Numbered from the stretch's first letter, positions 28,020 to 45,100 are shown. The stretch is DNA of 52,479 bases from Candidatus Woesebacteria bacterium (GCA_050123235.1 JASFHL010000009.1:1-52479); one strand, 5' to 3'. The notes: generated by a model not told the origin, from the sequence alone. Translations and numbers: made by a program.

Positions 28020-28081
28020 AAATCAAGAGAAAATTGTTTTTTTGGTAGAGATAAAATATTACATTCTTGAAGTTTTTTCTG

Positions 28082-28155
28082 TGGGTGATCATGGAGTCGA
28101 ACCATGGACCTCAGTCTTATCAGGACTGCGCTCTAACCATCTGAGCTAATCACCC
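28082..28155 (-). tRNA. tRNA-Ile(GAT), CCA not encoded
   Basis: GGGTGAT/ATCACCC acceptor, CAGTC-CTGATAA-GACTG anticodon arm. Confidence 0.95.
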
Positions 28156-28218: not shown

Positions 28219-30777
28219 TCACAGAATTACGATTTTTTTCTTATCATAATCCACTTTTACTTTATCTCCCTCTTTCACTTTACCTTGAATAATCAACATT
28301 GATAGTTCATCAAGTAAGCTTTTCTGGATAAGTCTCTTTAAGGGTCTAGCTCCAAAGACTGGATCATAGGCAGTTTTAGCAAAATACTCAATTGCTTTGT
28401 CAGTGATAGTGATAGTGATATTTTTAGCTTTAAGTCTATCAGCTACTTTTTCTACCTGAAGTTTAACAATAGCTACAATTTCTTCTTTAGTTAACGGTTG
28501 GAAAATAATGCTTTCATCAATTCTATTTAAGAATTCTGGTCTAAATTTTTGTTTAAGTAATTGTTGAACTGTTTTTTCTTGTTTTTTGCTATCTGCCTGA
28601 TATTCTGCAATTAAATCACTCCCAAGGTTGGAAGTCATAATAATGATAGTGTTTTTAAAATCTACAGTTTTGCCTTTACTATCAGTTAATCTACCTTCAT
28701 CTAGTATTTGTAACAAAATATTAAATACTTCTGAATGAGCTTTTTCAATTTCATCAAAAAGAACAACACTGTATGGATGGCGACGCACAGCTTCTGTGAG
28801 TTGGCCACCTTCTTCATAACCAACATATCCTGGAGGCGAACCAATTAACCTTGCTACAGCATGTTTTTCCATATATTCACTCATATCAATTCTAATAATC
28901 ATTCTTTCATCATTAAATAAAAATTCTGCTAAAGTTTTAGCCAGTTCAGTTTTACCAACTCCAGTTGGTCCCAAAAAGATAAATGAAGCAATCGGCCGAT
29001 TTGCTTCGGAAATATCTGCTTTATTACGCCTAACAGCATTGGCTACTGCTTCAATAGCTTGTTTTTGCCCAACTACTCTTTTAGCTAATTCATCTTCAAG
29101 AGCAATTAATTTTTCAGTCTCTTCTTTAAGCATTTTAGTGACAGGTATCTTAGTCCAACGCGAGACTACGGCTGCAATATCTTCTTCAGTGACCTCTTCT
29201 TTTAGAATTTGGCGGTCTTTTTGAAATTTATCTAAAACTTTTTTCTGAGCTTCGGCACGCTTTTTTAATTCAGGGATTTTGCCATATCTAATTGCCGCAA
29301 CTTTTTCTAATTCATAGTTGCGTTCGAGTTGTTTAGCTTCTTCTTCTAGTTTGTCTATTTCTTTACTAATAGCTTTTAATTCATCAATGATTTCTTTTTC
29401 ACGCTTCCAATGTAATTCAAGTTCTCTTAGTTCTTCTTTGATCTCTGAAGCCTGTTTTTCAATTTCAGTTAGCCTTTTTTTGCTTTGTTCATCTTTTTCT
29501 TTTTTAAGTGCTTGTTTTTCGATTTCTAATTGTCTTAATTTTCTTTCTAATTGATCAATGGCACTAGGTTTGCTGTCAATCTCAATCCTAATAGCACTGG
29601 CAGCTTCATCCATCAGATCAATTGCTTTGTCAGGCAAAAAGCGGTCAGAGATATAACGATCAGAAAGCTTAACTGCGGCGATAATAGCATTGTCTCTAAT
29701 CCTGACTCCGTGATGAGCTTCATACTTGTCTTTAATGCCTCTTAAAATAGAAATGGCATCATCTACTGATGGTTCATCTACCATCACTGGTTGAAAACGT
29801 CTTTCCAAAGCAGCGTCTTTTTCAATATATTTACGATATTCTTTAAGAGTGGTAGCGCCGATAGTGCGTAAAGTTCCTCTAGCTAAGGCTGGTTTAAGCA
29901 GATTGCCTGCATCGGTACTCCCTTCCTGCGCACCAGCTCCAACAATGGTATGGAGTTCATCAATAAAAAGGATAATTTGACCTTCAGTTCCTTCAATTTC
30001 TTTAATCACAGCTTTGAGTCGATCTTCAAATTCACCTCTATACTTAGCACCAGCAATCAATGAGCCCATATCTAAGGCCAGTATTTTTTTATTTTTTAGA
30101 GCATCAGGGACGTCATTGTCTATGATTTTTTTAGCCAAACCCTCCACGATAGCAGTTTTACCAGTGCCTGGTTCTCCAACTAAAACAGGATTATTCTTAG
30201 TACGTCTAGAGAGAATTTGAGTGATTCTGCGAATTTCAGCATCTCTGCCAATCACAGGATCAATTTTACCTTGTTTGGCTAGTTCAGTAAAATTTTGAGT
30301 ATACTTTTCTAAAGCCTGGTATTTACCTTCTGGATCACGATCAGTTACTTTTTGATTGCCACGAATTTTTTTAAGGGCATTTAAAATTTGCTTTTTATCA
30401 AGATCTAATAATTGATTTACCTGTTTATCAGTTAATAAGGCTAAAAATAAATGTTCGGTACTAATGTAATCATCTTGGAGTTTAGAAGCTTCAGTTTCAG
30501 CTTGATTAAATACCTTTTGTAGCTCTGATGATAAATAAGCCTGAGTAGGTCCAGAAATAGTTGCTAATTTACTAAGCTCATCTTTGACTTTTTGACTGAT
30601 TGTTTTTGGATTTTTTTCTAATTTTTGTAAAAGAGTAGGTACTAGTCCTCCGCTTTGTTCTAATAGTACTAATAACAAATGGAAAGGCATCAAAGCTTGA
30701 TGAGATAATTTGCCTGCCAGTTGCATTGCCCCCTGTATTGCTTCAGCTGATTTGGTGGTGAAATTGTTTAAATTCAT
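28219..30777 (-). CDS. clpB: Chaperone ClpB
   Basis: Two AAA+ modules ([16 protein letters not shown]), long coiled-coil M domain, GYVGYEEGG. Confidence 0.96.
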
Positions 30778-31014: not shown

Positions 31015-32543
<1,529 letters not shown>

Positions 32544-33972: not shown

Positions 33973-35241
33973 TTATTTTCTTTTTTTCAAAATCTGTAAA
34001 ACAATTCCCATGCCTCCACTGAAAATACCACTAATAGAAAGCATGGTATTAGTACCAGTTTCTGGTTGAGTAGTTAGGGGTTTTGTTTTGATATATAAAG
34101 TTTTTTTACAACCATTACTTCCGCCTTTCCAATTACCTGTTGAATCTTTGATATAAGCCCTAACCGTATAAGTGCCAGCTTGATGATATTTTTTTTGAAA
34201 AAAATTATTGTTTTTTTCTTCTGAACTATTGTCGCCATAGTCTACTTTAAAAGCCTGAAGTGACCCCTTATTATCATAGCCACTGACTTGGAAAGTAACT
34301 GAGGAAGGAGCATAAGCTCCATTACCAGCCGTAATGAAGATATCACTACAGCTAGATTTATGAGATTCTATTTGAGATGATTTAACTTTCACTTCAGTAG
34401 TACAAGCTGTACTGGTCTTCCAGTTACCTACGCTATCTTTGACTTCTACTCTAGCCTGAAAAGTCCCTGATACTTCATATTTATGAGTGATTTCAGAGTC
34501 ACTTGTTTCAATTTCTTGACCATCACCAAAATAAAATCGATATTTTTTAATTTCTCCTTTATTATCACTGCCTCTAGCTCTAAACTTCACTTTGGCAGGA
34601 ACTAAAGCATTATTGCCACTGACAATATCCAAATCATCACAAGAACTGCTGTGAGGAATTCCAGTTGGAGTGGGAGTGGCAGTAGGGCTGGGAGTAGTTG
34701 TAGGTGTTGGAGTACTAGTGACTGTGGGGGTAGCACTAGGTTTAGTAGTTGGGGTGGCTGTAGCAGTAGATTTGGGAGTCGCAGTAGGAGTAGTGGTGGC
34801 AGATGGTACAGAACAGCTGCTTAGAGGTGGATCATCCATAATCCAACCAACAGTTTGTCCTCCACTTTGCCAATCAATTTGATAAGCAAGACATTCACAA
34901 GCTTTACCATTTGGTAAATAGTGATAACCACCTTCTCCCACAGGGAAGATATTACATTGTGCTTGATCTTGAACTTTATAATTTTTGTATTCAATGTGAA
35001 TGGCATTACTGTTGTCACATCGTAGGGCATAAACCCCTTGGTCCCAAGTACAAGATAATTGATTACAATAAAAAATATAAGTACCTTCAATTTGATTACT
35101 TCCAGGATTATGATATCTTTCCTCAATACATTGTTGAGCAATTACTTTTCTAGCTGAAATAAAAAAACTGATTAAGGTAATATTTACCAAAAATAGAATT
35201 AATAGTGGAGCTTGTTTTAACTTATTAATAATTTTTTTCAT
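33973..35241 (-). CDS. Secreted PKD-repeat surface protein with QPETG sorting signal
   Basis: Signal peptide from ATG 35241, Cys-rich N domain, Thr/Pro linker, two PKD-like repeats (FYFGDG, VDYGDN), then QPETG, a hydrophobic stretch and KKRK. Confidence 0.8.
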   Translation of the reverse strand: MKKIINKLKQAPLLILFLVNITLISFFISARKVIAQQCIEERYHNPGSNQIEGTYIFYCNQLSCTWDQGVYALRCDNSNAIHIEYKNYKVQDQAQCNIFPVGEGGYHYLPNGKACECLAYQIDWQSGGQTVGWIMDDPPLSSCSVPSATTTPTATPKSTATATPTTKPSATPTVTSTPTPTTTPSPTATPTPTGIPHSSSCDDLDIVSGNNALVPAKVKFRARGSDNKGEIKKYRFYFGDGQEIETSDSEITHKYEVSGTFQARVEVKDSVGNWKTSTACTTEVKVKSSQIESHKSSCSDIFITAGNGAYAPSSVTFQVSGYDNKGSLQAFKVDYGDNSSEEKNNNFFQKKYHQAGTYTVRAYIKDSTGNWKGGSNGCKKTLYIKTKPLTTQPETGTNTMLSISGIFSGGMGIVLQILKKRK

Positions 35242-35288
35242 TGATAATAAAAAGTGTTTTATATATTTTGATATATTATACACTGTTT

Positions 35289-36404
35289 TTAAATTATTAT
35301 CGCTCCACCAAGGCAAATATAATCTCTTGAATTATTTAATTTAGTATAAAAAACAGCATATTGACCCGGAGTAATAGCAAAGGCTTTTTGATCAAGTTTT
35401 ACTAAGTATTTGTTTTTATTTTTAGTTTTAGTTTTTAAATTACAACTTATAAAAGAAGCACTGTGTCTTATTTTGACAAATAAAGGATTGTTATTTAATA
35501 GTTTTGGAGAATCGTTGACCAAGGATAAGTTTTGAATCCAAAAATTATCTTGATAGGCATCTGACCTATTGCCAACGATTAATTGGTTTTCTTTTTTATT
35601 TTTAGCAATGATAAATAAAGAAGGAGGATTATGTTTATCTTTTACTAATTTAGTTTTATTAATTAAACTTTTAGTATTTATAGTAAAGCCATGTCTTTGA
35701 CCAATGGTGTATAGCCAGATACCATTATGTTGTCCAATTACATTTCCTTTTTTGTCAATTACTTGTCCTACTCTGCTTTTCAATTTTTCTTTTAAAAAAT
35801 CTACTACTTTCATTTCTTCAATAAAACAAATTCCAGCAGAATTTTTTTCTTGACTAAAGTGAATGTTTCTTTTTTTTGCTTTTTTTCTTACTTCATTTTT
35901 ACTTAAATGGCCGATTGGGAAAATGATTTTTTTTAATTGTTGCTCTTTTAATTGATGTAAAAAATAGCTTTGATCTTTGTTTTTATCATTGGCAGTTTGT
36001 AAATAAAAATTGCTATTCTTAGTAAGAATTTTGGCATAATGACCAGTGGCAATATAATCAAAATTGTTTTTCATAGCCCATTGATAAAAAAGGCCAAATT
36101 TAATTGATTGATTACAAATAACACAAGGATTAGGCGATAATCCCATTTGATATGATTTTAAGAAATAATTGAGAATCTTATTTTCAAATTTACGGTTAAA
36201 ATCCAAGAGACGAAATTTTATTCCTAGATCGTCAGCTATTTTTTTTGCTTTGCTTTCATTTTTTTCAATTTGTTTGGATGAAGTACTCCACAATGTAAAA
36301 TGAACAGCTGTGATTTGATAGTTCTGTTTTTTTAAAAGATAAGCAGCTAAAGCTGAATCAACACCTCCTGACAAAGCTAAGGCCACTTTTTTGGATTGTG
36401 ACAT
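35289..36404 (-). CDS. mnmA: tRNA 2-thiouridine synthase
   Basis: LSGGVDS, PNPCVICN, ATGHYA, KDQSYFL, GICF, TPGQ. Confidence 0.95.
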   Translation of the reverse strand: MSQSKKVALALSGGVDSALAAYLLKKQNYQITAVHFTLWSTSSKQIEKNESKAKKIADDLGIKFRLLDFNRKFENKILNYFLKSYQMGLSPNPCVICNQSIKFGLFYQWAMKNNFDYIATGHYAKILTKNSNFYLQTANDKNKDQSYFLHQLKEQQLKKIIFPIGHLSKNEVRKKAKKRNIHFSQEKNSAGICFIEEMKVVDFLKEKLKSRVGQVIDKKGNVIGQHNGIWLYTIGQRHGFTINTKSLINKTKLVKDKHNPPSLFIIAKNKKENQLIVGNRSDAYQDNFWIQNLSLVNDSPKLLNNNPLFVKIRHSASFISCNLKTKTKNKNKYLVKLDQKAFAITPGQYAVFYTKLNNSRDYICLGGAIII

Positions 36405-36436: not shown

Positions 36437-37309
36437 TTATTTTTTTTTAAATTTTTTCGCGTAATCAACACAATAGTCAATCATTTTTCCAGGGATATTT
36501 GCTTTTGTACTTTGCATTAGACCAGTAAATTGAGGAGCTCTATTTACCTCCAATATTTTCATTTGTCCGTTTTCTTTAATCAGGTCTACTCCAGCAAAAG
36601 CATAGCCTAATGCTCGAGCTGCTTTAATAGCTAATTTTTCTTCTACTGCTTTTGGATTATAAATTTCAGCTTTACCACCTAAAGAGATATTATTACGAAA
36701 TTCATTCTGACTAGTAGCTACTCTTTTCATTGCGGCGATAACTTTGTTACCAATAACAAAAAAACGATAGTCACCATCATTTTTAATAAATTTTTGAATT
36801 AAAAGATGACTATGGTATTTATCAAAGAGTTTTTCAATTGAATTTTGATCTTTAATTAAATAAACTCCTCTCCCTTGTGATTGGTCAGTAGTTTTTACAA
36901 TACAAGGATATTGGATTTTTTCAGCAATCTTTTCAAAAGGTTGTTTACTTAAAAAAAGAGTATCAATGATCGGTAAATTATTTTCTGCCAGTTTTGTGTA
37001 TTCAAAACTTTTGCGATCTACCCATGGCAATTTGTTAACGAAAACTGGATCAAGTACTGGAATTTTTTTTTCTAAACAATAACTAGAGATAATGGTAGCT
37101 AATTCAGTATTCTTTTTAAGATGTCTAAAGTGAATCAAATCGTAGTCATCTATTGAATGATTATTTACCCTAATTTTGATTTTATTATCAGTAAAACTAA
37201 TTTTTAGTTCGTAGTAGTGATATAAATCAAGTTGTATTGACTTCTTTTTAGCTTCATGGACAAAGATTTTGTTGTTTTTGGTATGGGTCACTAAGAATAA
37301 TATTTTCAT
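36437..37309 (-). CDS. RimK-family ATP-grasp ligase
   Basis: SQGRGV, LIQKFI, DYRFFVIG, FRNNISLGG, GVDL, LEVN. Confidence 0.88.
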   Translation of the reverse strand: MKILFLVTHTKNNKIFVHEAKKKSIQLDLYHYYELKISFTDNKIKIRVNNHSIDDYDLIHFRHLKKNTELATIISSYCLEKKIPVLDPVFVNKLPWVDRKSFEYTKLAENNLPIIDTLFLSKQPFEKIAEKIQYPCIVKTTDQSQGRGVYLIKDQNSIEKLFDKYHSHLLIQKFIKNDGDYRFFVIGNKVIAAMKRVATSQNEFRNNISLGGKAEIYNPKAVEEKLAIKAARALGYAFAGVDLIKENGQMKILEVNRAPQFTGLMQSTKANIPGKMIDYCVDYAKKFKKK

Positions 37310-37326
37310 TGTGGGTATATTTAGAT

Positions 37327-38298
37327 TTAGTTCAAAGCTAACTGCTTTTCTACTAGATCTAATATTTTGGCAGCAATATTGATAGGTTTTCCTTTCATTG
37401 GATAATGATGCATTCTTAATCCTGGAGATTTATTTACTTCAATGATGCCAGCTTTGTTTTGCTGAGTGATATCTGTGTTTAGATTCTGGCACATCATATC
37501 TATGCCAATAACATTTAGATCACAGGCTTTAGCAATTTTTTCAAATAATTTTTTATTTTCTGGAGACACTTGATTTGTAACATTCCAAGCTTCACCACCA
37601 GTAGAGAGATTAGCGGTTTTACGAAGTATGACCTCTTTATTTTTTGATGGAATAGAGTCTAATGAGAGATTTTGTTCTTTTAGATATCCTTTTAAGAGAT
37701 TATCTATCTTGATTTTAGTTAAATTTCCTTCGTGCCCTTCTTTTCTCCATGGATGTTGATTTTTTTCATCGATCAATTGAGTAATGCTTTTTTTACCATC
37801 ACCAGTCACATAAGCTGCTTTTCTAAAAGCAGCTGCTACAAATTTGAAATCCACGCAAACAATTCTATATTCTGTACCTTCCAGCATCTCTTCAAATAAA
37901 ACTTTTTGTGGTTTTTCTTGATAGTATTTTTTAGCTTCTTCAATATCTTTGATGCCTACTATTACATCTCTGCCATGGGCACCAGCAATAGGTTTCATTA
38001 CTAATGGGAATTGTAATTTATCTATATTTTGAATTTCCTCTGAATTTTTTACGACCACATATTTAGCTGTTGGTAAGTCAAAATGAGTTAGAATTTTTTT
38101 TGTTAATTCTTTAAGATTAGCAATTACACAGCCAATGGCAGATTGAAATGAGGTTCTAGATCCTCTGGTATACCAATGCTTTCCATTCTTTTGCATCAGG
38201 ATAGTATTGTTATCACCAAAGGTAGTGCATTTAATTCCTCGTTTTTGAGCCTCTTGATACATAATTCTAGCACTAGCATCGAGTTTTATTTGTTTCAT
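37327..38298 (-). CDS. Stand-alone ATP-grasp ligase of the cyanophycin synthetase/GshF type
   Basis: VMKP..GAHGRDV, VTGDGKKSITQLI..KN, LRKTANLSTGG, IIEVNKSPGLRMHHYP. No Mur-ligase or GshA domain. Confidence 0.82.
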   Translation of the reverse strand: MKQIKLDASARIMYQEAQKRGIKCTTFGDNNTILMQKNGKHWYTRGSRTSFQSAIGCVIANLKELTKKILTHFDLPTAKYVVVKNSEEIQNIDKLQFPLVMKPIAGAHGRDVIVGIKDIEEAKKYYQEKPQKVLFEEMLEGTEYRIVCVDFKFVAAAFRKAAYVTGDGKKSITQLIDEKNQHPWRKEGHEGNLTKIKIDNLLKGYLKEQNLSLDSIPSKNKEVILRKTANLSTGGEAWNVTNQVSPENKKLFEKIAKACDLNVIGIDMMCQNLNTDITQQNKAGIIEVNKSPGLRMHHYPMKGKPINIAAKILDLVEKQLALN

Positions 38299-38313
38299 AA
38301 TAGTTATTATAAT

Positions 38314-39258
38314 TTAATTAATTAAATTATTAAATTGATTTAGATTTCCAATCTGTTTAATTTCTTGAAGATATTTTTTTATATCCTTAAAGAAAGTAGG
38401 ATAAATTATTTTTTTATCTTTAATCTGAATTTCATTTTTAATTTGATTAATTTGCTTTAAACTCAACCTACCAAGATAGAGTAAATGAGGATCATTAGCT
38501 TTGTTGATTAGCCAATCCCAGACTAAGACTGCTCCTTCTAAATAAGTAATATCTTTAGTAAAACCTCCAGCTTGTGATGTATCTTTTAATCCTCTTTTCT
38601 TTTTAACTACTATATTCCAGATAAAGTTTTCATTTAAATTAAATTTTTTTAGAGCAGCAAAAATTCGACTAAATGATTGAGTTCTAGCTAAATAACTAGC
38701 GTAATAATGATAATAACTTTTGTGCATGATTTTTTCTTTACGAAAAAGATAATTGTGAAGAGTAGCAATACCTTCTTCTGTTTTCCTGAAGCTAGGAGTT
38801 TCAGCCATTTTACCCAGTTTTTGTTTGTCGTGATTGTATCTACGTAAATAGTGAGTTTCTATTTCGTGATTAATTTTGCCAATGATTTTTTCTTTACTTA
38901 ATAAAATTGGAGTCTGAAAATAGAGTCCTTTTGAACCTAATTTAGCCTGACCAATATATTTTGGAGAATAATAAATAGGTATTTGCTTAAGACCTAATTG
39001 ATAAAAGACAGTTTTAATTAACTTATTCACTTCTTCAGTTGATGTTTCTACTTGTTTGCTTTTTAAGGGAACAGGATATTGTTGAAGCATTTTTTTACTA
39101 TGTAAAAAAATATGCTTTTTTGGTAAACCATAATAAGTTAATATTTTGCGATCAATTGCTTTTTTATATTTAAATTGAGGATTATAAGAAAAATCAGAGA
39201 AAAACTTTTTTCTTTCTTCTTGTATATTAACTGGTGTTAAATCACTGATAAAGCCCAT
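38314..39258 (-). CDS. DUF1704 / MATCAP-like metallocarboxypeptidase
   Basis: YNPQFKY, HEIETH (HExxxH), TEEGIA, KKRGLKDTS..GGFTKDITYLEG, LYLGRLS. Confidence 0.8.
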   Translation of the reverse strand: MGFISDLTPVNIQEERKKFFSDFSYNPQFKYKKAIDRKILTYYGLPKKHIFLHSKKMLQQYPVPLKSKQVETSTEEVNKLIKTVFYQLGLKQIPIYYSPKYIGQAKLGSKGLYFQTPILLSKEKIIGKINHEIETHYLRRYNHDKQKLGKMAETPSFRKTEEGIATLHNYLFRKEKIMHKSYYHYYASYLARTQSFSRIFAALKKFNLNENFIWNIVVKKKRGLKDTSQAGGFTKDITYLEGAVLVWDWLINKANDPHLLYLGRLSLKQINQIKNEIQIKDKKIIYPTFFKDIKKYLQEIKQIGNLNQFNNLIN

Positions 39259-40541
39259 TATTCACCTACTCCCACTAGAAAACCAGCTAGGTCTTTACGT
39301 CCTATTTCTATACGATGTTTACCTTTGTTAAGTTTTTTAGAGACAATCATAGCTGTTTTTAATCTTTTTTCTTTTAGTTTTACTTTAATTTCAACTACTG
39401 GCACTTTTCCCTCGCCGGCTTCTTGTTGAAACCAGAGTAAATCATCAACATCAATTAAACCCAATTGACTTGATAATTGTCCACTAATAGCACTTCTGTA
39501 TCTACCAGTATTAATAAGAGCAGTAACGGTTTGTTTTACCTTATTCTCACCTTGTACAATTACTTCTTCTCTTGGTTGAACAATAGTTAAACCTTCTTTA
39601 GCTTTAATCTTATCAGCAAAACTTTCAGCAAATAGCGCTTGGCTAATTCTCACACCATGGTCAGGATTTAAAACATTAAGGTCTTCTACTCTTTCTAATC
39701 TACGTCGCAAACCAGCTTTATTGGCTACTTGGATGGAAAGACCGGGATTAGCATTCAATTCTACCACCATGGGTCCTTGTTCCTTATGAAGAAATATATC
39801 TACTCCACTAAACATCAATTTTGCAGCATTGCTAGCTTCAATGGCTGTTTTTAAAACTTTAGTCCAGAAAGGAATGATGATACCGTTAAGTTTTTTTTTT
39901 GTTCCTGGTAAATATTTAATTAACTGATTTTTGTGTGCGGCAGCATAAGTAGTAATTCCAGTTGCCATATCAATGCCTACTCCGATAGCCCCTTGACTTT
40001 GATTAGCCCTTCCCTCTGATTCCTCAGTTGGTAATCTGAGTAGGGCCATGATTGGGACACTATTAAAAACAATTACTCGAATATCTGGGGTTCCTTTATA
40101 GGTGTATCTAAGTAGCTTTGGATGGATGGGAACTCTTTCTTCAATAATAATATGGTTTTTATCACCATAGGTACTGTATTGACCTTCTAAAATATCAAAA
40201 CAATGTAATTTAATATCTTCTAAATCCCAGATTTCACCTAATCTATCTTTCCACTCAAGTTTATTTTTATGTTTAGTTGAGAAGGCGACTACACCTTTCC
40301 CTGCATTGCCATTAGTAGGTTTGATCACAAAATCTTTTTCTAGTTTTTTCCAGTCGTAATCATTGATATCTTCAATTGTTCCCAAAATGCCATAAAGCTT
40401 AGCTGTGGGGATATTATTATTTCCCAGAAGAATCTTAGTGGCATACTTGGATGAACAGATAGCTTTTGCCGTATTAGAATTAAATGAAGTATAAAGCTGG
40501 TTACGGGCATTCATACCCAGAATTTCATTAGCTTTAATCAT
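39258..40541 (-). CDS. Alpha-L-glutamate-ligase-like ATP-grasp fused to a degenerate RimB/retropepsin-like domain
   Basis: ILGMNARN, FVIKP..GNAGKG, PDIRVIV, LRLPT..SEGRAN, ELNANPGLSIQVAN; C-terminal ALINTGRYRSAI...IGRKDLAGFLV. Confidence 0.82.
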   Translation of the reverse strand: MIKANEILGMNARNQLYTSFNSNTAKAICSSKYATKILLGNNNIPTAKLYGILGTIEDINDYDWKKLEKDFVIKPTNGNAGKGVVAFSTKHKNKLEWKDRLGEIWDLEDIKLHCFDILEGQYSTYGDKNHIIIEERVPIHPKLLRYTYKGTPDIRVIVFNSVPIMALLRLPTEESEGRANQSQGAIGVGIDMATGITTYAAAHKNQLIKYLPGTKKKLNGIIIPFWTKVLKTAIEASNAAKLMFSGVDIFLHKEQGPMVVELNANPGLSIQVANKAGLRRRLERVEDLNVLNPDHGVRISQALFAESFADKIKAKEGLTIVQPREEVIVQGENKVKQTVTALINTGRYRSAISGQLSSQLGLIDVDDLLWFQQEAGEGKVPVVEIKVKLKEKRLKTAMIVSKKLNKGKHRIEIGRKDLAGFLVGVGE

Positions 40542-41514
40542 ATTTTTTGTTTAAGAGGGAACCAAATCTAATATATTCTAAGAGACGTAGCCCAGTGTAT
40601 TTACTGATGATATAGTTGATGACTGCGACTCCAATCAGGGTAAGCTCTGGTTTCAGAATCACAAATTGTCTAATTTCTTCCATTCCAATAATCAAAGAAC
40701 AAAGTATAGCAATCAGTAAAGTTTCTAAAGTTAATGTGAAAGCTTCTCTTTGACTAGTAAATAATTGGGTTTCCATGAAATTTTCAGTTAAGAGCATAAT
40801 AATTAATAAAGGGAAAATGTTAAGCGTGAGTAGTGAGAATTTGTCAAAGTTGGAAGATATAATTAAAATGGCAAGGATGATAATTGATACACCCCAAAGT
40901 AACATGGCAGTTCTAGGTAAATAGGGCATTTTAAATTTCTTGATAATTTTTCTACTTAGAGTTGCAGCCAATAAAACTGCTAGAAAAATACTGGTGCCAG
41001 TGATGATGCCAGTAGATACAAAGGCGACTGATAAAACAGCCGGAATATAAATACCAAATCCTCTTAAACCTATGATATGTCTAGAAGCAGCAATAATTGA
41101 GGCAATTGTTGGGAACAAAATAAGCAAGACAATAATATTGGCAGGTAGTCCTTTTTCAATAGAGTTTCTGATAGCGTGTTGAAGAAAGTTATGCCAAGTT
41201 AATTTTCCAATCGGGTGTTGTTCTAGATATTGAACAAGATTGCTTTGTTGTTGGCTACTAGGATCTGTAATATCTTCATCTTTTTTCTTTTGAATCTTTT
41301 CTACTACTTCAGCTGATGGGGAGGAAAGTTTACTTGATTCAGTAGCTTCAGCAGAAGGAGTAGATCCTTCTGCTGCTGAGACACTCAGATCTTCTGCGGC
41401 TCTGATTACTTCAATATCTGTGATTTGAGCTTGTATTTTACTTGAATTAATCAAGGCTATAGAAGCTATGATAAAGTTAATAAAAAGGATGGTGAATTTA
41501 TTCTTAATTGGCAT
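40534..41514 (-). CDS. 7TM protein (7TM_transglut-like) with a short low-complexity ectodomain
   Basis: RHIIGLRGFGIYIP, YLPRTA, IFPLLII..TENF, KYTGLRLLEYIRF; signal peptide. Confidence 0.8.
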   Translation of the reverse strand: MPIKNKFTILFINFIIASIALINSSKIQAQITDIEVIRAAEDLSVSAAEGSTPSAEATESSKLSSPSAEVVEKIQKKKDEDITDPSSQQQSNLVQYLEQHPIGKLTWHNFLQHAIRNSIEKGLPANIIVLLILFPTIASIIAASRHIIGLRGFGIYIPAVLSVAFVSTGIITGTSIFLAVLLAATLSRKIIKKFKMPYLPRTAMLLWGVSIIILAILIISSNFDKFSLLTLNIFPLLIIMLLTENFMETQLFTSQREAFTLTLETLLIAILCSLIIGMEEIRQFVILKPELTLIGVAVINYIISKYTGLRLLEYIRFGSLLNKKYD

Positions 41515-41606
41515 AACAAACTATTATAGCAAGAAGCTTGGATATAAGGCGAGATTATTTTTATCATTACAAGATAGTTCTTGAGAAGAAAGGGGTAATG
41601 TTAAAG

Positions 41607-41969
41607 TTAAAGAAAAACCCCAATCAGGGATTGTAAGAAGCTAATAGCAAAGGAAATAACGACTAAAGTTCCGATAAAACCCAATTTGATACCTAGTATG
41701 CTCATTGCTTGGATTTGAAAGCCAGGTACTAAAAAGGTAGCTAACCATAACAGAGCAACATTGATGACTATAGAAAAAAGTCCTAAAGTCACAATATTGA
41801 TCGGTAAAAAAAGAATTTTAAGCACAGGTTTAGCGATTTTTTGTAAAAGAGTTAAGACAACCCCAGCCAAAATTAAAGTAGTCCAGTTAAGATAAGAGAC
41901 TGTAGGTATAGCCCAAGCTAGAATTAGGATTGTTAGAATAGTGATGATAATTGGTTTAAGAAGTTTCAT
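41607..41969 (-). CDS. YvlD-like 4TM 'phage holin family' membrane protein
   Basis: KPVLKILFLPINIVTLGLFSIVINVALL motif. Confidence 0.85.
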   Translation of the reverse strand: MKLLKPIIITILTILILAWAIPTVSYLNWTTLILAGVVLTLLQKIAKPVLKILFLPINIVTLGLFSIVINVALLWLATFLVPGFQIQAMSILGIKLGFIGTLVVISFAISFLQSLIGVFL

Positions 41970-42015: not shown

Positions 42016-43392
42016 TTATTTCAACATTTCTTTAATTCTCAATCTGCTATGTTGTTTTTTAGCAAAACGATGCGATTCATCTCTAATTTGTTGAATTAAT
42101 TGTAAACTAGGATGATCAGGTTGTAATCTGAGGATTTGATATGAAAGTTCTAATCGCTCTTTTTTTTCTTGTTTTTTAATGGGAATGATTATTCTATCAG
42201 GATTTTTTGCAATGCCAATGACAGGAATATTCCATTTTAGGCTAGATAAAACTGCTCTAATTTGACCTTTTCCACCATCAATGACAATAAGCTTGGGCAT
42301 TCCCCATTCAGGATGATTCTGTCTTCTGATAATAGCTTCTTTAAACATTTGATAATCATTGGGAGTATTAATAGTTCTGATATTAAATAAACGATAGTGT
42401 TTTTTAGCTGCCTGCCCTTGTTGAAATACAACCATAGAGACTGCAGGATTTGTTCCTTGAATATTGCTCACATCAAAACCTTCGATACGATCCAGTTTAT
42501 ATTTTTTGGGCAATGATAAATAGAAATGAAGAATTTTATTTAAATGATCAAGAGCATGTTTTATTTGTCCTTGTTTTAGTTTTGGTAAAATTAATTCCGG
42601 TTGAAGCTTGTATTTTTTTTCGGTTACTTCTTTGATTAATTGAATTTTATTTTTATAACTAGCTGCTTTTTCAAAAAGTTCTTTACTGGCAGCAATTTTC
42701 ATTTTTTTTTCTAATTGTTTAATTATTTTTTTCTTTTTACCTCTTAAAAATAAAATAAGTTCTTTAATATTAGCTTGATAGTCTGTGGCAGAAATTTGTC
42801 CAATACAAGCCCCAGGGCAAAGATCTAGCTGGTAATAAAAGCAAGCTTTATTCCTTCCTTTAGCAGCTTCATTACACCAAGGAAAAATTCTTCTGGCAAT
42901 TTTTAAAACTTCATTGAGTTTATATGAACTAGGAAAAGGTCCCAGGACTGTACCTTTGATTTTACCTTTATATAATTGTTTTTTTCTAATCTTCAATATT
43001 CTAGGAAATTTTTCATTAGTAAGATGGAGATAAATTGGACTTTTATCATCTTTTAATAGAATATTATAGACTGGTTGATGCAACCTAATTAATTCTGCTT
43101 CTATTAGTAGGGCCTCTAAATCACTTTCCAAAACTTGATACTCTAATTTTTTGGCAGTAGTGACTAATTTTTTAATTCTATCTGTAAGTTGGAAGTATCT
43201 TTTATAAGAATTAATTCTATTCCTAAGATTTTTAGCTTTACCGACATAAAGAATCTTATTTTTTTCTCCTAAAAATGAATAAACTCCCGGTTGCGAGGGT
43301 AATGATAATAATGATGGCAGCCATGGCAGTAAGGACGATGGGGTTATAGAAGAACTCAAATTTTTTGGAGATGCTGCTGATGACGAATTCAT
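42016..43392 (-). CDS. uvrC: Excinuclease UvrC (short form, no C-terminal HhH)
   Basis: PGVY..YVGKAKNL GIY-YIG, Cys cluster, UVR helix, RIEGFDVSNIQG, IDGGKGQ, RDESHRFA. Confidence 0.9.
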   Translation of the reverse strand: MNSSSAASPKNLSSSITPSSLLPWLPSLLSLPSQPGVYSFLGEKNKILYVGKAKNLRNRINSYKRYFQLTDRIKKLVTTAKKLEYQVLESDLEALLIEAELIRLHQPVYNILLKDDKSPIYLHLTNEKFPRILKIRKKQLYKGKIKGTVLGPFPSSYKLNEVLKIARRIFPWCNEAAKGRNKACFYYQLDLCPGACIGQISATDYQANIKELILFLRGKKKKIIKQLEKKMKIAASKELFEKAASYKNKIQLIKEVTEKKYKLQPELILPKLKQGQIKHALDHLNKILHFYLSLPKKYKLDRIEGFDVSNIQGTNPAVSMVVFQQGQAAKKHYRLFNIRTINTPNDYQMFKEAIIRRQNHPEWGMPKLIVIDGGKGQIRAVLSSLKWNIPVIGIAKNPDRIIIPIKKQEKKERLELSYQILRLQPDHPSLQLIQQIRDESHRFAKKQHSRLRIKEMLK

Positions 43393-45100
43393 AGCTGTTA
43401 CTGTATGATTGATTATTGATAATAATTTTAATTTTTTCCTGACTAATTAATCCTTTCTTATTATAAATAGTAATTGGAATTGAACTAGATTGAAATGGCA
43501 ATAGTTTAATTTCATCAATTTTTTTATTAAACTCAAATTCAAGTTTTGAATTTAGACCTTCAAAATTTAATTGGTTTTGATACCAAGCTCTACCAGTTTT
43601 ATTATGAAAATTAATTTGATAAAGACCTGGAATTGAAAAAAAGAAAAATTTCTTGGGCTGCAATTGGATTTCAATATCAGGGTTTATTTGAGGGAAATTT
43701 TCAGTAAATTCAATCTCTAGGTCCTTGCTTTCTTTTTGATCATTCTTATAAGAACCTGCAGGGTATGGTAATTCACTAGATTTACTATTAATAGCAAAAA
43801 CAAGATGATTTAAATCAAATTGGTTAAAATAATCAACCCCATTAGTAGTATCCCCCCAGGTGGGATCTACAGCAACCCAGCGTTTTTGTTCTTGATCATA
43901 ATATTCTGGCCAAGCGTGCAAAACATCAATCAGACCAAGTGGCCTGAGTTCTTCATTTTGACTATAAGCATAGCCAGTAATTCTTCTCGCAGGGATTTTT
44001 TGAGCACGAGCTAAAGTAATAAAAAGATCTGTAAATTCCTGACAAGTTGCTTGTCCTGATTGAATCAAAACTTTACTTGCTCCCAATCTTTCGAAATCTT
44101 GATTAATGTCTTCTTTAGTATAATCTAATTTATTGATCACAAAATCATAAATTGCTTCAGGACCTTGATGATCTTGGCTTAGAGCTTGGATATTATTGTC
44201 ATTTATTTCCCAATATTTATTAGCTTTAAGATCTTTATTAGAAAAGGAGCTTCCTAAGCTAGGATTTTGAATTTTAAGACTGATTAGAGCTTGGGCATCT
44301 AGCTTCACCACGGTTTGGCTATTAGCAGCTAACTTATAAGTAGCAATCCAATTACCATCTTCATCAATTTTAATATCTTCTGGTGATGGCTCAAGACTAT
44401 GATAGTGCATTGTCTGAAAAGCTGTGTCTGGTGGTAGAGCTATTTGTGTAATAGCAGTCTGATCATTAGGATTTTCTAAATGAAAGTTTAATTTTAGATT
44501 AAAAATTTGTTCTTCTCCAAAGATAATGGAAATACCTTTGCCAGCAGTATTTTCAAAAGTAGTAATGATATCATCATTGGTAACTTGAGTACGATGATCT
44601 AGATTAACTCTACTAGGTGCTCCAAATTTTTTTGGCGTGATAATAGTAGTTTTTAGATTTTGATAAGTATTAGTATTAGCTAATTGAGGAATTGTGACTT
44701 CCAAGACTTTACCATTGACAAGCGATATATTTGGATCTTTATAACTAATAGTAATGGTTCTAATTTTATCTTTTCCAACTACTTCATCAGGGAAAGTTAC
44801 TCCAATACTACTATATTTGTCTCCATTAACAACTTCTGCAGGGATTTCTTTTGAGCCATCAAAAACTTTAACATTTCGAATATCCTTTGAGCTAAGTTTG
44901 AGACCATAGCTATTAATATAAAAAGTAGGACTTAGATTTTTAATCTGAAGTGTATGTTCCACATAAGTATCAGCATTTTGGTTGACACTATAAATACTGT
45001 GAAGTGAAAATTCAAAATTCTCATTGGCAGAGACCTGTTTTACTATAGCCAAAAAAAGAAAAATTACGATGGAGAAGCTGTAAAAAATTTTTTTAATCAT
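43256..45100 (-). CDS. Membrane-anchored extracytoplasmic transglutaminase-like protein
   Basis: Signal peptide, TCQEFTDLF, IPARRITG, HAWPEY, VDPTW (Cys-His-Asp triad intact), C-terminal TM plus RRKK. Confidence 0.87.
   Translation of the reverse strand: MIKKIFYSFSIVIFLFLAIVKQVSANENFEFSLHSIYSVNQNADTYVEHTLQIKNLSPTFYINSYGLKLSSKDIRNVKVFDGSKEIPAEVVNGDKYSSIGVTFPDEVVGKDKIRTITISYKDPNISLVNGKVLEVTIPQLANTNTYQNLKTTIITPKKFGAPSRVNLDHRTQVTNDDIITTFENTAGKGISIIFGEEQIFNLKLNFHLENPNDQTAITQIALPPDTAFQTMHYHSLEPSPEDIKIDEDGNWIATYKLAANSQTVVKLDAQALISLKIQNPSLGSSFSNKDLKANKYWEINDNNIQALSQDHQGPEAIYDFVINKLDYTKEDINQDFERLGASKVLIQSGQATCQEFTDLFITLARAQKIPARRITGYAYSQNEELRPLGLIDVLHAWPEYYDQEQKRWVAVDPTWGDTTNGVDYFNQFDLNHLVFAINSKSSELPYPAGSYKNDQKESKDLEIEFTENFPQINPDIEIQLQPKKFFFFSIPGLYQINFHNKTGRAWYQNQLNFEGLNSKLEFEFNKKIDEIKLLPFQSSSIPITIYNKKGLISQEKIKIIINNQSYSNSYEFVISSISKKFEFFYNPIVLTAMAAIIIIITLATGSLFIFRRKK

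Follow-up and report, generated by a model that had tools for sequence, protein, structure and literature searches.

The window analysed in this study, a whole stretch of 52,479 nucleotides (nt) from Candidatus Woesebacteria bacterium (GCA_050123235.1 JASFHL010000009.1:1-52479), carried five same-strand (-) open reading frames (ORFs) at 36437-41514. In the gene order A-B-C-D-E, they encoded a seven-transmembrane (7TM) protein, an ATP-grasp ligase with a retropepsin-like domain, a MATCAP-family peptidase, and two further ATP-grasp ligases. The recurrence and fusion of these genes in other lineages make it very likely that the cluster is a functional module. The source genome (G000) was 1.13 Mb in 18 contigs with a completeness of 98.5%, and close homologues were labelled Patescibacteria or Pacebacteria in the sources. 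A preliminary description of the same DNA had reported five co-oriented genes with overlaps of 8 and 1 nt followed by gaps of 15 and 17 nt; this layout was reproduced exactly by the ORF calls (A/B and B/C overlaps, C-D and D-E gaps, respectively), and all five family assignments were upheld by Pfam and NCBIfam profiles. The genes and domains were as follows.

40534-41514 (-): A, RloB-like 7TM_transglut membrane protein, 326 amino acids (aa)
39258-40541 (-): B, ligase with a retropepsin-like domain, 427 aa
39687..40541 (-): N-terminal part of B, approximately residues 1-285, RloC-like ATP-grasp ligase of the alpha-L-glutamate-ligase-like type (PF14397, TIGR02291)
39258..39689 (-): C-terminal part of B, residues 285-427 plus the stop codon, retropepsin-like, RloA/RimB type (AlphaFold2 model and Foldseek)
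38314-39258 (-): C, MATCAP-family zinc metallopeptidase, 314 aa (PF08014)
37327-38298 (-): D, stand-alone ATP-grasp ligase of the CphA G-domain/GshF C-terminal type, 323 aa
36437-37309 (-): E, RimK-family ATP-grasp protein of the alpha-L-glutamate-ligase type, 290 aa (TIGR00768)

Domain composition of the encoded proteins

Residues 126-320 of A matched PF14402 (7TM_transglut) at 85.4 bits (cut-off 25, E = 5.8e-24); this was its sole Pfam match, and no transporter family was matched. Only model positions 314-507 of the 508 in NF052267 (RloB) were aligned, at 53 bits against a cut-off of 900, and profile and hydropathy analysis detected no transglutaminase-like domain in A, the first 125 residues consisting of a signal/anchor and low-complexity sequence. 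The architecture was a signal/anchor, an outside low-complexity segment of ~90 aa, and seven transmembrane (TM) helices, and from hydropathy combined with the positive-inside rule two segments are predicted to face the cytoplasm, namely loop 187-201, with 6 Lys/Arg, and the C-terminal tail, with 5.

Residues 13-286 of B matched PF14397 (ATPgrasp_ST) at 202.7 bits (cut-off 31.4, E = 8.7e-60), and B matched TIGR02291 (alpha-L-glutamate ligase-like) at 238 bits (E = 1.2e-70), under its cut-off of 314. The ATP-grasp Glu-x-Asn motif, which binds Mg/ATP, was kept in the translations of all three ligases as VVELN (B), IIEVN (D), and ILEVN (E), and E261 and N263 of B were invariant in 24 homologues. 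The ~140 residues after the ligase domain of B had no profile assignment. In this C-terminal region, 17 of 27 homologues had a weak Pfam gag-asp_proteas match, with E = 0.0027 at best, and a profile search of PDB sequences with the domain gave nothing useful. When an AlphaFold2 model of the domain, built from a 27-homologue alignment (pLDDT 80.6), was compared with the PDB by Foldseek, the top match was 9g59_A, the periplasmic aspartic peptidase RloA2 of P. aeruginosa (E = 3.0e-5), followed by 9g58_A (P. fluorescens RloA), Ddi1 retroviral-protease-like domains, retroviral proteases, and a Legionella DUF785 protein. This ranking indicated a retropepsin of the RloA/RimB kind, the fold being assigned from the model alone, with hints from the sequence searches. 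The catalytic Asp-Thr-Gly of the domain was Asn-Thr-Gly in the window, and among 24 order-level homologues the first residue of the motif was N in 21, H in 1, S in 1, and D in 1 (as D-T-K), so that D-T-G occurred in 0/24. Retropepsins without the catalytic Asp are expected to be inactive, and from the change of Asp to Asn at the catalytic site the retropepsin-like domain of B was predicted to be catalytically dead.

A complex of B with residues 95-326 of A was predicted using alignments built for this analysis. The ipSAE was 0.39 (0.39, 0.41, and 0.36 in separate runs) compared with 0.00 for the best of three controls, at least 93% of the contacts were common to the runs, and the partner pLDDT was at least 72. 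Of 80 solved complexes, 58 passed the mark used for complex scores, as did 2 of 110 mismatched pairs; at scores of 0.60 or below, the passes comprised 7 of the 80 solved complexes and both of those mismatched pairs. The prediction thus gave weak support to a physical A-B complex.

C matched PF08014 at 61.6 bits (cut-off 27), a family now named MATCAP and formerly DUF1704 or the QEGLA family. It contained the motifs HEIETH at 131-136 and TEEGIA at 160-165, and H131, E132, H136, E161, E162, and G163 were invariant across 20 diverse homologues; in MATCAP/TMCP enzymes, an HExxxH zinc site takes its third ligand from an EEG motif (PMC10499314, available part). A phmmer search of PDB sequences matched C to human MATCAP (7z5g, E = 1.7e-28), and an AlphaFold2 model (pLDDT 92.6) aligned with 7z5g in Foldseek at TM scores of 0.83/0.79 over 326 columns, the next unrelated match reaching 0.45. 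This comparison of DUF1704 with MATCAP, which the preliminary description had proposed, indicated in both sequence and model that C is a true MATCAP-fold protein. Neither a signal peptide nor a TM segment was found in C by sequence-based prediction. MATCAP/TMCP enzymes cut off C-terminal Tyr and Glu and shorten polyglutamate chains, according to the available part of PMC10499314, and by analogy we infer that C is a carboxypeptidase acting on acidic C-terminal tails.

D matched TIGR02068 (cyanophycin synthetase) at 313.6 bits (cut-off 850, E = 2.6e-93) over model positions 154-470 of 862, the G domain of CphA, and also the C-terminal ligase half of GshF (NF002688, E = 5.1e-59). It differed from CphA1 and GshF in having no N-terminal primer-holding domain, Mur-like M domain, or glutamate-cysteine ligase half; without the N and M domains, D cannot be a cyanophycin synthetase. 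E matched the RimK family (TIGR00768) at 156.5 bits, above the cut-off of 143.4, and PF08443 (E = 1.5e-35), and scored 91 bits against the S6-glutamate-ligase equivalog model, whose cut-off is 331. Among the ligases, E alone had a Pfam TTL match, a weak one (26.0 bits, E = 6.7e-6). Another RimK-type ATP-grasp protein of 284 aa (PF08443, 57 bits) was encoded on contig C10 of the same genome (L169:1111-1965 (+)).

Co-occurrence, fusion and motif loss in related genomes

A protein search found a homologue of C in 42 of 61 genomes, counting G000, including 33/36 other genera of the same family and 8/24 genomes from other families of the order. Of 20 loci taken from the family's other genera, 19 had A, B, and C side by side, and the remaining one (L022) had a match to C only. 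A phylum sample of 301 evenly drawn genomes was then covered by family-profile searches, in which MATCAP was found in 59/301 genomes and 7TM_transglut in 100/301. From a reading of the two result tables, the 7TM protein was present in 56 of the 59 MATCAP-positive genomes compared with 44 of the 242 MATCAP-negative ones; in 41 of those 56 both genes lay on one contig within 10 kb, and in one family (f43) both occurred in 14/14 genomes. We examined 15 kb around the 7TM gene in 40 phylum loci, 20 from MATCAP-positive and 20 from MATCAP-negative genomes, using hidden Markov models (HMMs) built here. The ligase-retropepsin gene directly followed the 7TM gene in 38/40 loci, the exceptions being L088 and L094 (contig end).

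Fusion of the ligase to the peptidase was found repeatedly, in classes of the phylum other than that of the window. A single ORF encoded ligase, retropepsin, and MATCAP at 10 of the 20 MATCAP-positive loci, and in 19/59 MATCAP-positive genomes the MATCAP match lay inside a frame of 671-862 aa, in which it appeared fused to the ligase-retropepsin. Pfam detected ATPgrasp_ST and MATCAP in one protein of 784-794 aa at three independently found loci, L041, L043, and L051, titled Peregrinibacteria, Saccharibacteria, and 'uncultured bacterium', each fusion following a PKD-7TM_transglut gene. One fused protein searched against 1.84 billion representative proteins gave 3745 matches at E <=0.001, and of the best 149 of these, 73 had both the ligase and the MATCAP domains. 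That the two have fused in many lineages argues, more strongly than any other observation here, for a common target of ligase and peptidase. Thus, the functional linkage of the genes proposed in the preliminary description was borne out by a neighbourhood survey in which the 20 family and 40 phylum loci showed a recurring association, by the general presence of the 7TM protein in MATCAP-bearing genomes, and by the fusions elsewhere. The preliminary description would have been refuted by a lack of co-occurrence in other genomes, and the genes did co-occur.

The state of the retropepsin motif differed with the presence of MATCAP. The motif could be aligned in 38 core proteins, 19 MATCAP-negative and 19 MATCAP-positive. 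The MATCAP-negative proteins had K-[IV]-D-T-G-A in 19/19, whereas the MATCAP-positive proteins had DTGA in 6/19 and DTG in 12/19, and in most fused core proteins the motif was lost (NPLL, SPDL, DLGA, DPHY, ETGS, or DLHA). Among 120 of 149 representatives, the rest having no usable ligase domain, D[TS]G was retained in 8 of 78 long proteins (at least 600 aa) versus 26 of 42 short ones; these raw counts for fusion and motif loss are descriptive only, as the tree-aware test described below was not significant. Since the motif is often eroded with MATCAP and intact without it, the simplest reading is that MATCAP replaced the retropepsin and the old site then decayed, and the sequences suggest that MATCAP has become the working hydrolase.

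Genes resembling D and E were more variable. D-like genes occurred in 8/20 family loci, sometimes in two or three copies, and E-like genes in 2/20 (L028 and L031), the two together only in L031; thus, the exact five-gene set was rare. Among the phylum loci, CphA-like or RimK-like ligases (0-4 per locus) lay beside the core in 8/20 MATCAP-positive and 11/20 MATCAP-negative loci, 19/40 in total, and all five families of the window were found together in other families at L077 (the same place as L043), L082, L083, and L084. At L092:4003-5844 (-), RimK-like and CphA-like domains were fused in one ORF of 613 aa. This recurrence beside the core in other families indicated that D and E, though optional, belong to the system and do not lie next to it by chance. 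The 'three distinct ligases' of the preliminary description are therefore all present, and are better described as one core ligase plus two lineage-variable accessories. An accessory ligase of mixed form (491 aa) was seen at L079:6443-7918 (+), and fragments of 77-122 aa at L091:4659-6079 look like a decayed accessory-ligase gene.

MATCAP genes were also seen in other contexts, and placement beside ATP-grasp genes is a wider theme, not a universal one. The wide set of 34 loci is a biased sample, found through one strict peptide pattern. In L053, L056, L064, and L067 (titled Omnitrophota or 'Planctomycetia'), a second conserved MATCAP cluster had the order radical-SAM (SPL-like), nitroreductase, MATCAP, a 480-aa ATP-grasp_3 protein, an unassigned protein of ~523 aa, and a CstA peptide transporter. 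In L042, L044, L048, L049, L054, and similar loci (titled Woesearchaeota/Methanosarcinales, DPANN-like), MATCAP lay among housekeeping genes with no ATP-grasp neighbour. A divergent second MATCAP-like paralogue of 461-486 aa, convergent to the core, was present at L073:8540-9994 (-), L074:8344-9804 (-), and L087:7657-9042 (-).

Known systems, the putative mechanism and its alternatives

A module of 7TM protein, ATP-grasp ligase, and protease was reportedly described by Iyer et al. in 2009, likely for the first time, and the Rlo and Rim systems, with a RimB-RimK hybrid, are already known. In the available part of PMC11957051, the Pseudomonas rlo operon encodes the retropepsin RloA, the 7TM protein RloB with an inactive transglutaminase domain, and the ATP-grasp protein RloC. 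The RloA proteases are secreted; loss of all three caused hypo-osmotic death or lysis, sensitivity to antibiotics (ampicillin), and shape defects, and deletion of rloB or rloC rescued these defects (PMC11957051, same part). The same text places 96% of RloB matches in Proteobacteria. The preliminary description had presented the pairing of a 7TM protein with this ATP-grasp family as a known but uncharacterised module; it is indeed known, but 'uncharacterised' is no longer wholly apt, since it corresponds to the RloB/RloC pair of PMC11957051.

The cluster resembles the rlo operon in its 7TM_transglut protein, its ATPgrasp_ST ligase, perhaps of the TIGR02291 type, the adjacency of these two genes, and a domain with the RloA-like fold (9g59, 9g58). 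It differs in that the retropepsin forms the C-terminal end of the cytoplasmic ligase and has Asn in place of Asp, whereas RloA is separate, secreted by a signal peptide, and active; in addition, the 7TM protein has no periplasmic transglutaminase-like domain, a MATCAP-family peptidase and two further ligases are added, and the host is a Patescibacterium, whereas RloB is mostly proteobacterial.

In the Rim systems, as far as the available part of PMC11957791 describes them, RimK both attaches Glu at the S6 C-terminus and synthesises free poly-alpha-L-glutamate, the retropepsin RimB removes Glu runs and stimulates this free synthesis by RimK, and an active RimB-RimK hybrid (RimBK) has the protease at its N-terminus. 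Common to both is an ATP-grasp alpha-L-glutamate ligase paired or fused with a retropepsin, both cytoplasmic, and E is itself a RimK-family member. In contrast to RimBK, the protease domain of the window is C-terminal to an RloC-type ligase and degenerate, the system has a membrane partner, and MATCAP presumably serves as the hydrolase. The S6 acceptor of the Rim systems has acidic residues at its end, whereas S6 of the source genome ends in Lys.

MATCAP was reportedly identified in 2022 as a tubulin detyrosinase. C shares with eukaryotic MATCAP/TMCP1-2 the fold and the HExxxH plus EEG site, and in both settings a carboxypeptidase of this family is paired with ATP-grasp ligases acting on C-termini (TTL/TTLL in the tubulin code). 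Detyrosinated alpha-tubulin ends in -EE, as do candidate acceptor tails of the bacterial systems. On the other hand, no tubulin is involved in the window system, C has no long N-terminal part (the 471-residue 7z6s_C aligns only from approximately residue 143), the ligases are of the RimK/RloC/CphA type rather than the TTL type, and the prokaryotic peptidase is often fused to a ligase.

These comparisons led us to regard the cluster, with roughly even chances of being right, as a Patescibacterial variant of the Rlo/Rim systems of ATP-grasp ligase and peptidase, in a third arrangement. From the gene content, folds, motif states, co-occurrence, and fusions observed, we infer the activities, the residue added, the acceptor, and any regulatory meaning in the following scheme. 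The system would work at the cytoplasmic face of the membrane, beside or on the 7TM protein A. B, helped by D and E, would add amino acids singly to a C-terminal carboxylate in an ATP-driven reaction, most likely Glu and other acidic residues, and C would take residues off the same C-terminus, setting or resetting the length of the tail. The dead retropepsin domain of B may hold the acidic tail, its hydrolytic role having passed to C. Because the ligases activate a carboxylate, MATCAP enzymes trim C-termini, and the retropepsin family recognizes Glu runs, the picture of a tail that B, D, and E extend and C trims back would be a coherent one. By analogy with the characterised enzymes, the question of whether ligases write and MATCAP trims an acidic C-terminus is finely balanced in our judgment.

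The best candidate acceptor in this scheme would be the cytoplasmic C-terminal tail of A. In the family loci, the tails of A homologues mostly terminated in one to four Glu, and among the 120 closest database homologues a terminal E was present in 95/120 and EE in 62/120, with variable preceding sequence. In the phylum tail sample of 98 7TM proteins, from which G239 was left out as a weak match, a terminal -EE occurred in 15/55 MATCAP-positive and 0/43 MATCAP-negative genomes, and any terminal E in 16/55 and 2/43, respectively; in the 40 large loci, EE terminated 0 of 344 further ORFs with a length of 200 aa or more. In the eight -EE loci among L069-L088 the retropepsin motif was never DTGA, and in the six MATCAP-positive loci retaining DTGA the 7TM proteins all ended otherwise than in -EE. 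An -EE end encoded beside a RimK-like ligase also recalls S6. The -EE tails in some MATCAP-bearing lineages make the 7TM tail a candidate acceptor, an assignment that is tentative and, on the sequences, doubtful. Two other acceptors were considered and rejected: S6 of the source genome ends in ...VKEEEK, with Lys rather than Glu, and FtsZ, considered as a tubulin-like acceptor, ends in the non-acidic ...IPAFLRQK (the search for tubulin itself extended to FtsZ).

Several observations weigh against the scheme. The tail of A in the window ends in ...LLNKKYD, with no terminal E, and -EE was missing from 40/55 MATCAP-positive 7TM tails, including the fused lineages L073, L074, and L077. Core systems without MATCAP had non-acidic 7TM tails, so that the tail cannot be a universal acceptor. 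In a tree built from the 7TM domain (98 rows, with one short row dropped), the state of -EE changed only 4 times, and a test on independent pairs gave a median p of 1 (range 0.25-1), with no power; because of these few changes, the raw Fisher values for MATCAP versus -EE (p = 9e-5 by genome and 0.002 by family) overstate the link, and the underlying counts are descriptive only. Likewise, on a FastTree phylogeny of the ligase domain (100 of 120 rows, 20 with incomplete domains being dropped), there were 13 changes of state for fusion and 11 for motif loss, and a test on independent pairs, again with no power, gave a median p of 1 (range 0.25-1). Since housekeeping neighbours are conserved too, with MnmA downstream in 18/20 family loci, family synteny alone is weak evidence of joint function, and since D and E were missing from most family loci, three ligases are no conserved design. 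The secretion of RloA in Pseudomonas suggests that the founding system yields something exported and not a cytoplasmic tag. Finally, the union of ligase and peptidase in a single polypeptide would suit a pair for biosynthesis or processing just as well as a reversible switch.

The principal alternative is that the enzymes make a free peptide or poly-amino acid, such as a poly-alpha-glutamate-like oligomer or an osmolyte, and no protein is tagged; MATCAP, or the retropepsin in other lineages, would degrade or size the product, and the 7TM protein would export it or sense the envelope or osmotic state. The free poly-alpha-L-glutamate made by RimK and stimulated by RimB (PMC11957791, in part) is a precedent, D resembles the polymer-forming G domain of CphA and the peptide-forming halves of GshF and NAGGN synthetase, and up to four accessory ligases beside the core in 19/40 phylum loci recall biosynthetic clusters. 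The rescue of RloA loss by deletion of rloB or rloC fits a toxic exported product, and the phenotypes are hypo-osmotic (PMC11957051, in part). In Photobacterium, moreover, the available part of PMC10308900 reports that low salinity induces a QEGLA/MATCAP-family gene 27-fold and rimK 52-fold, the former adjoining a gene annotated as glutathione synthase. Production of a pure export product is nevertheless difficult to reconcile with two cytoplasmic hydrolase domains, often on the ligase polypeptide, which would create a futile cycle; D has neither the N nor the M domain of cyanophycin synthetase, A matched 7TM_transglut and no transporter family, and the -EE tails of the 7TM proteins would be left with no role. 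We hold a free product to be possible, if improbable. Reversible C-terminal tagging, as put forward in the preliminary description, thus stands insofar as all of the enzyme families act on the C-terminal carboxylate, which fits a writer and an eraser, and it keeps the free peptide or polymer as its rival.

A stronger version of the tagging scheme is that the cluster is a bacterial counterpart of the tubulin code, in which the cytoplasmic tail of a 7TM envelope receptor, ending in -EE, has ligases as writers, the dead retropepsin as reader, and MATCAP as eraser, tail length sets the state of the receptor, and eukaryotic MATCAP descends from ligase-coupled trimmers of prokaryotes. We consider this unlikely; if it were true, writer, reader, and eraser would reside on one polypeptide in many lineages.

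A very unlikely alternative is that the acceptor is an envelope precursor. In this view, the ligases would extend the peptidoglycan stem peptide carried, on the inner side of the membrane, by UDP-MurNAc or lipid II, MATCAP would act as a cytoplasmic stem carboxypeptidase, and the 7TM protein would link these reactions to the wall. There are known ATP-grasp enzymes that attach D-Asp to stem peptides. D and related accessory ligases matched Pfam and NCBIfam models of the D-Ala-D-Ala-ligase type, 7TM proteins of other classes bear outside PKD domains, and the rlo mutants were ampicillin-sensitive, misshapen, and prone to hypo-osmotic lysis (PMC11957051, in part). On the other side, no Mur, Fem, or penicillin-binding genes were found in the conserved neighbourhood of the family and phylum loci, and the known substrates of the nearest characterised relatives of B, E, and the retropepsin domain are alpha-linked Glu tails, not stem peptides. 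MATCAP relatives are also, to our knowledge, known only to act on protein tails.

The possibility that A, B, and C work together, and D and E act independently (for example, E on S6 and D on a small thiol or dipeptide), deserves as little credence: the scarcity of D-like (8/20) and E-like (2/20) genes in the family loci, the family-wide synteny from the transglutaminase-like gene to MnmA (18/20), which makes adjacency inside the family prove little, and the score of E above the RimK family cut-off speak for it, but CphA- and RimK-like ligases lay beside the 7TM/ligase core in unrelated families (19/40 loci), all five families recurred together in L077/L043, L082, L083, and L084, the S6 of the source genome ends in ...VKEEEK and not in Glu, and the gaps of 15 and 17 nt fit one transcript.

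Surroundings of the cluster and significance

Profile searches identified MnmA on the downstream side of the cluster and, on the upstream side, a 4-TM holin-like protein, UvrC, and a transglutaminase-core protein. An extended -10-like motif was read from the sequence before A.

41523..41531 (-): possible promoter, extended -10-like motif TGCTATAAT, ending 8 nt before the ATG of A

A terminator-like hairpin was found at 41616-41632 (-), at the 3' end of the holin-like gene. The hairpin after that gene and TGCTATAAT before A together hint at a separate, nearly leaderless transcript of the five genes. A promoter belonging to A itself, giving a near-leaderless mRNA, is possible, a lead on weak evidence, as a consensus promoter scan gave 41 sites compared with a shuffled mean of 40.1, and the promoter and terminator scan as a whole gave no excess over shuffles.

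The transglutaminase-core protein (43256-45100 (-), 614 aa) had a signal/anchor, a C-terminal TM helix, and Cys, His, and Asp residues that look intact (ATCQEF, HAWPEYY, and VDPTWG), and its ORF overlapped that of UvrC by 137 nt. The gene was syntenic with the cluster inside the family, directly preceding the holin-like and 7TM genes in L038. This protein and the holin-like protein (41607-41969) were rejected as parts of the system: they are syntenic in the family, but their HMMs matched 0/40 phylum loci. A defence system was likewise rejected, PADLOC giving no match for the five proteins or the two upstream proteins tested. A PKD-domain protein of 447 aa (33973-35316 (-)) lay downstream of MnmA and was kept in the family synteny; in other classes of the phylum, PKD domains were fused instead to the outside part of the 7TM protein. 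Farther along, the window contained a complete 16S rRNA gene (31017-32543 (-)) with no adjoining 23S gene, and beyond it an ORF of 852 aa (28219-30777) and then tRNA-Ile (28081-28155 (-)); the rRNA genes appear unlinked or interrupted.

A literature search found no paper linking MATCAP relatives to ATP-grasp ligases, and none describing the ligase-retropepsin-MATCAP fusion, the decay of the retropepsin with MATCAP, or the -EE tails; the search did not cover supplements, and a prior mention is possible. We know of no role assigned to bacterial MATCAP relatives. The link of this family to ATP-grasp ligases by fusion and co-occurrence gives it a testable bacterial function, the trimming of ligase-made C-terminal tails, and makes a prokaryotic ancestry plausible for an enzyme that modifies the eukaryotic cytoskeleton. 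The link also extends the Rlo system, which is relevant to antibiotic tolerance and osmotic survival in Pseudomonas, to a simpler cytoplasmic version that names a candidate acceptor. The five genes occupy ~0.45% of a reduced genome of 1.13 Mb, and their retention suggests an important envelope or stress function.

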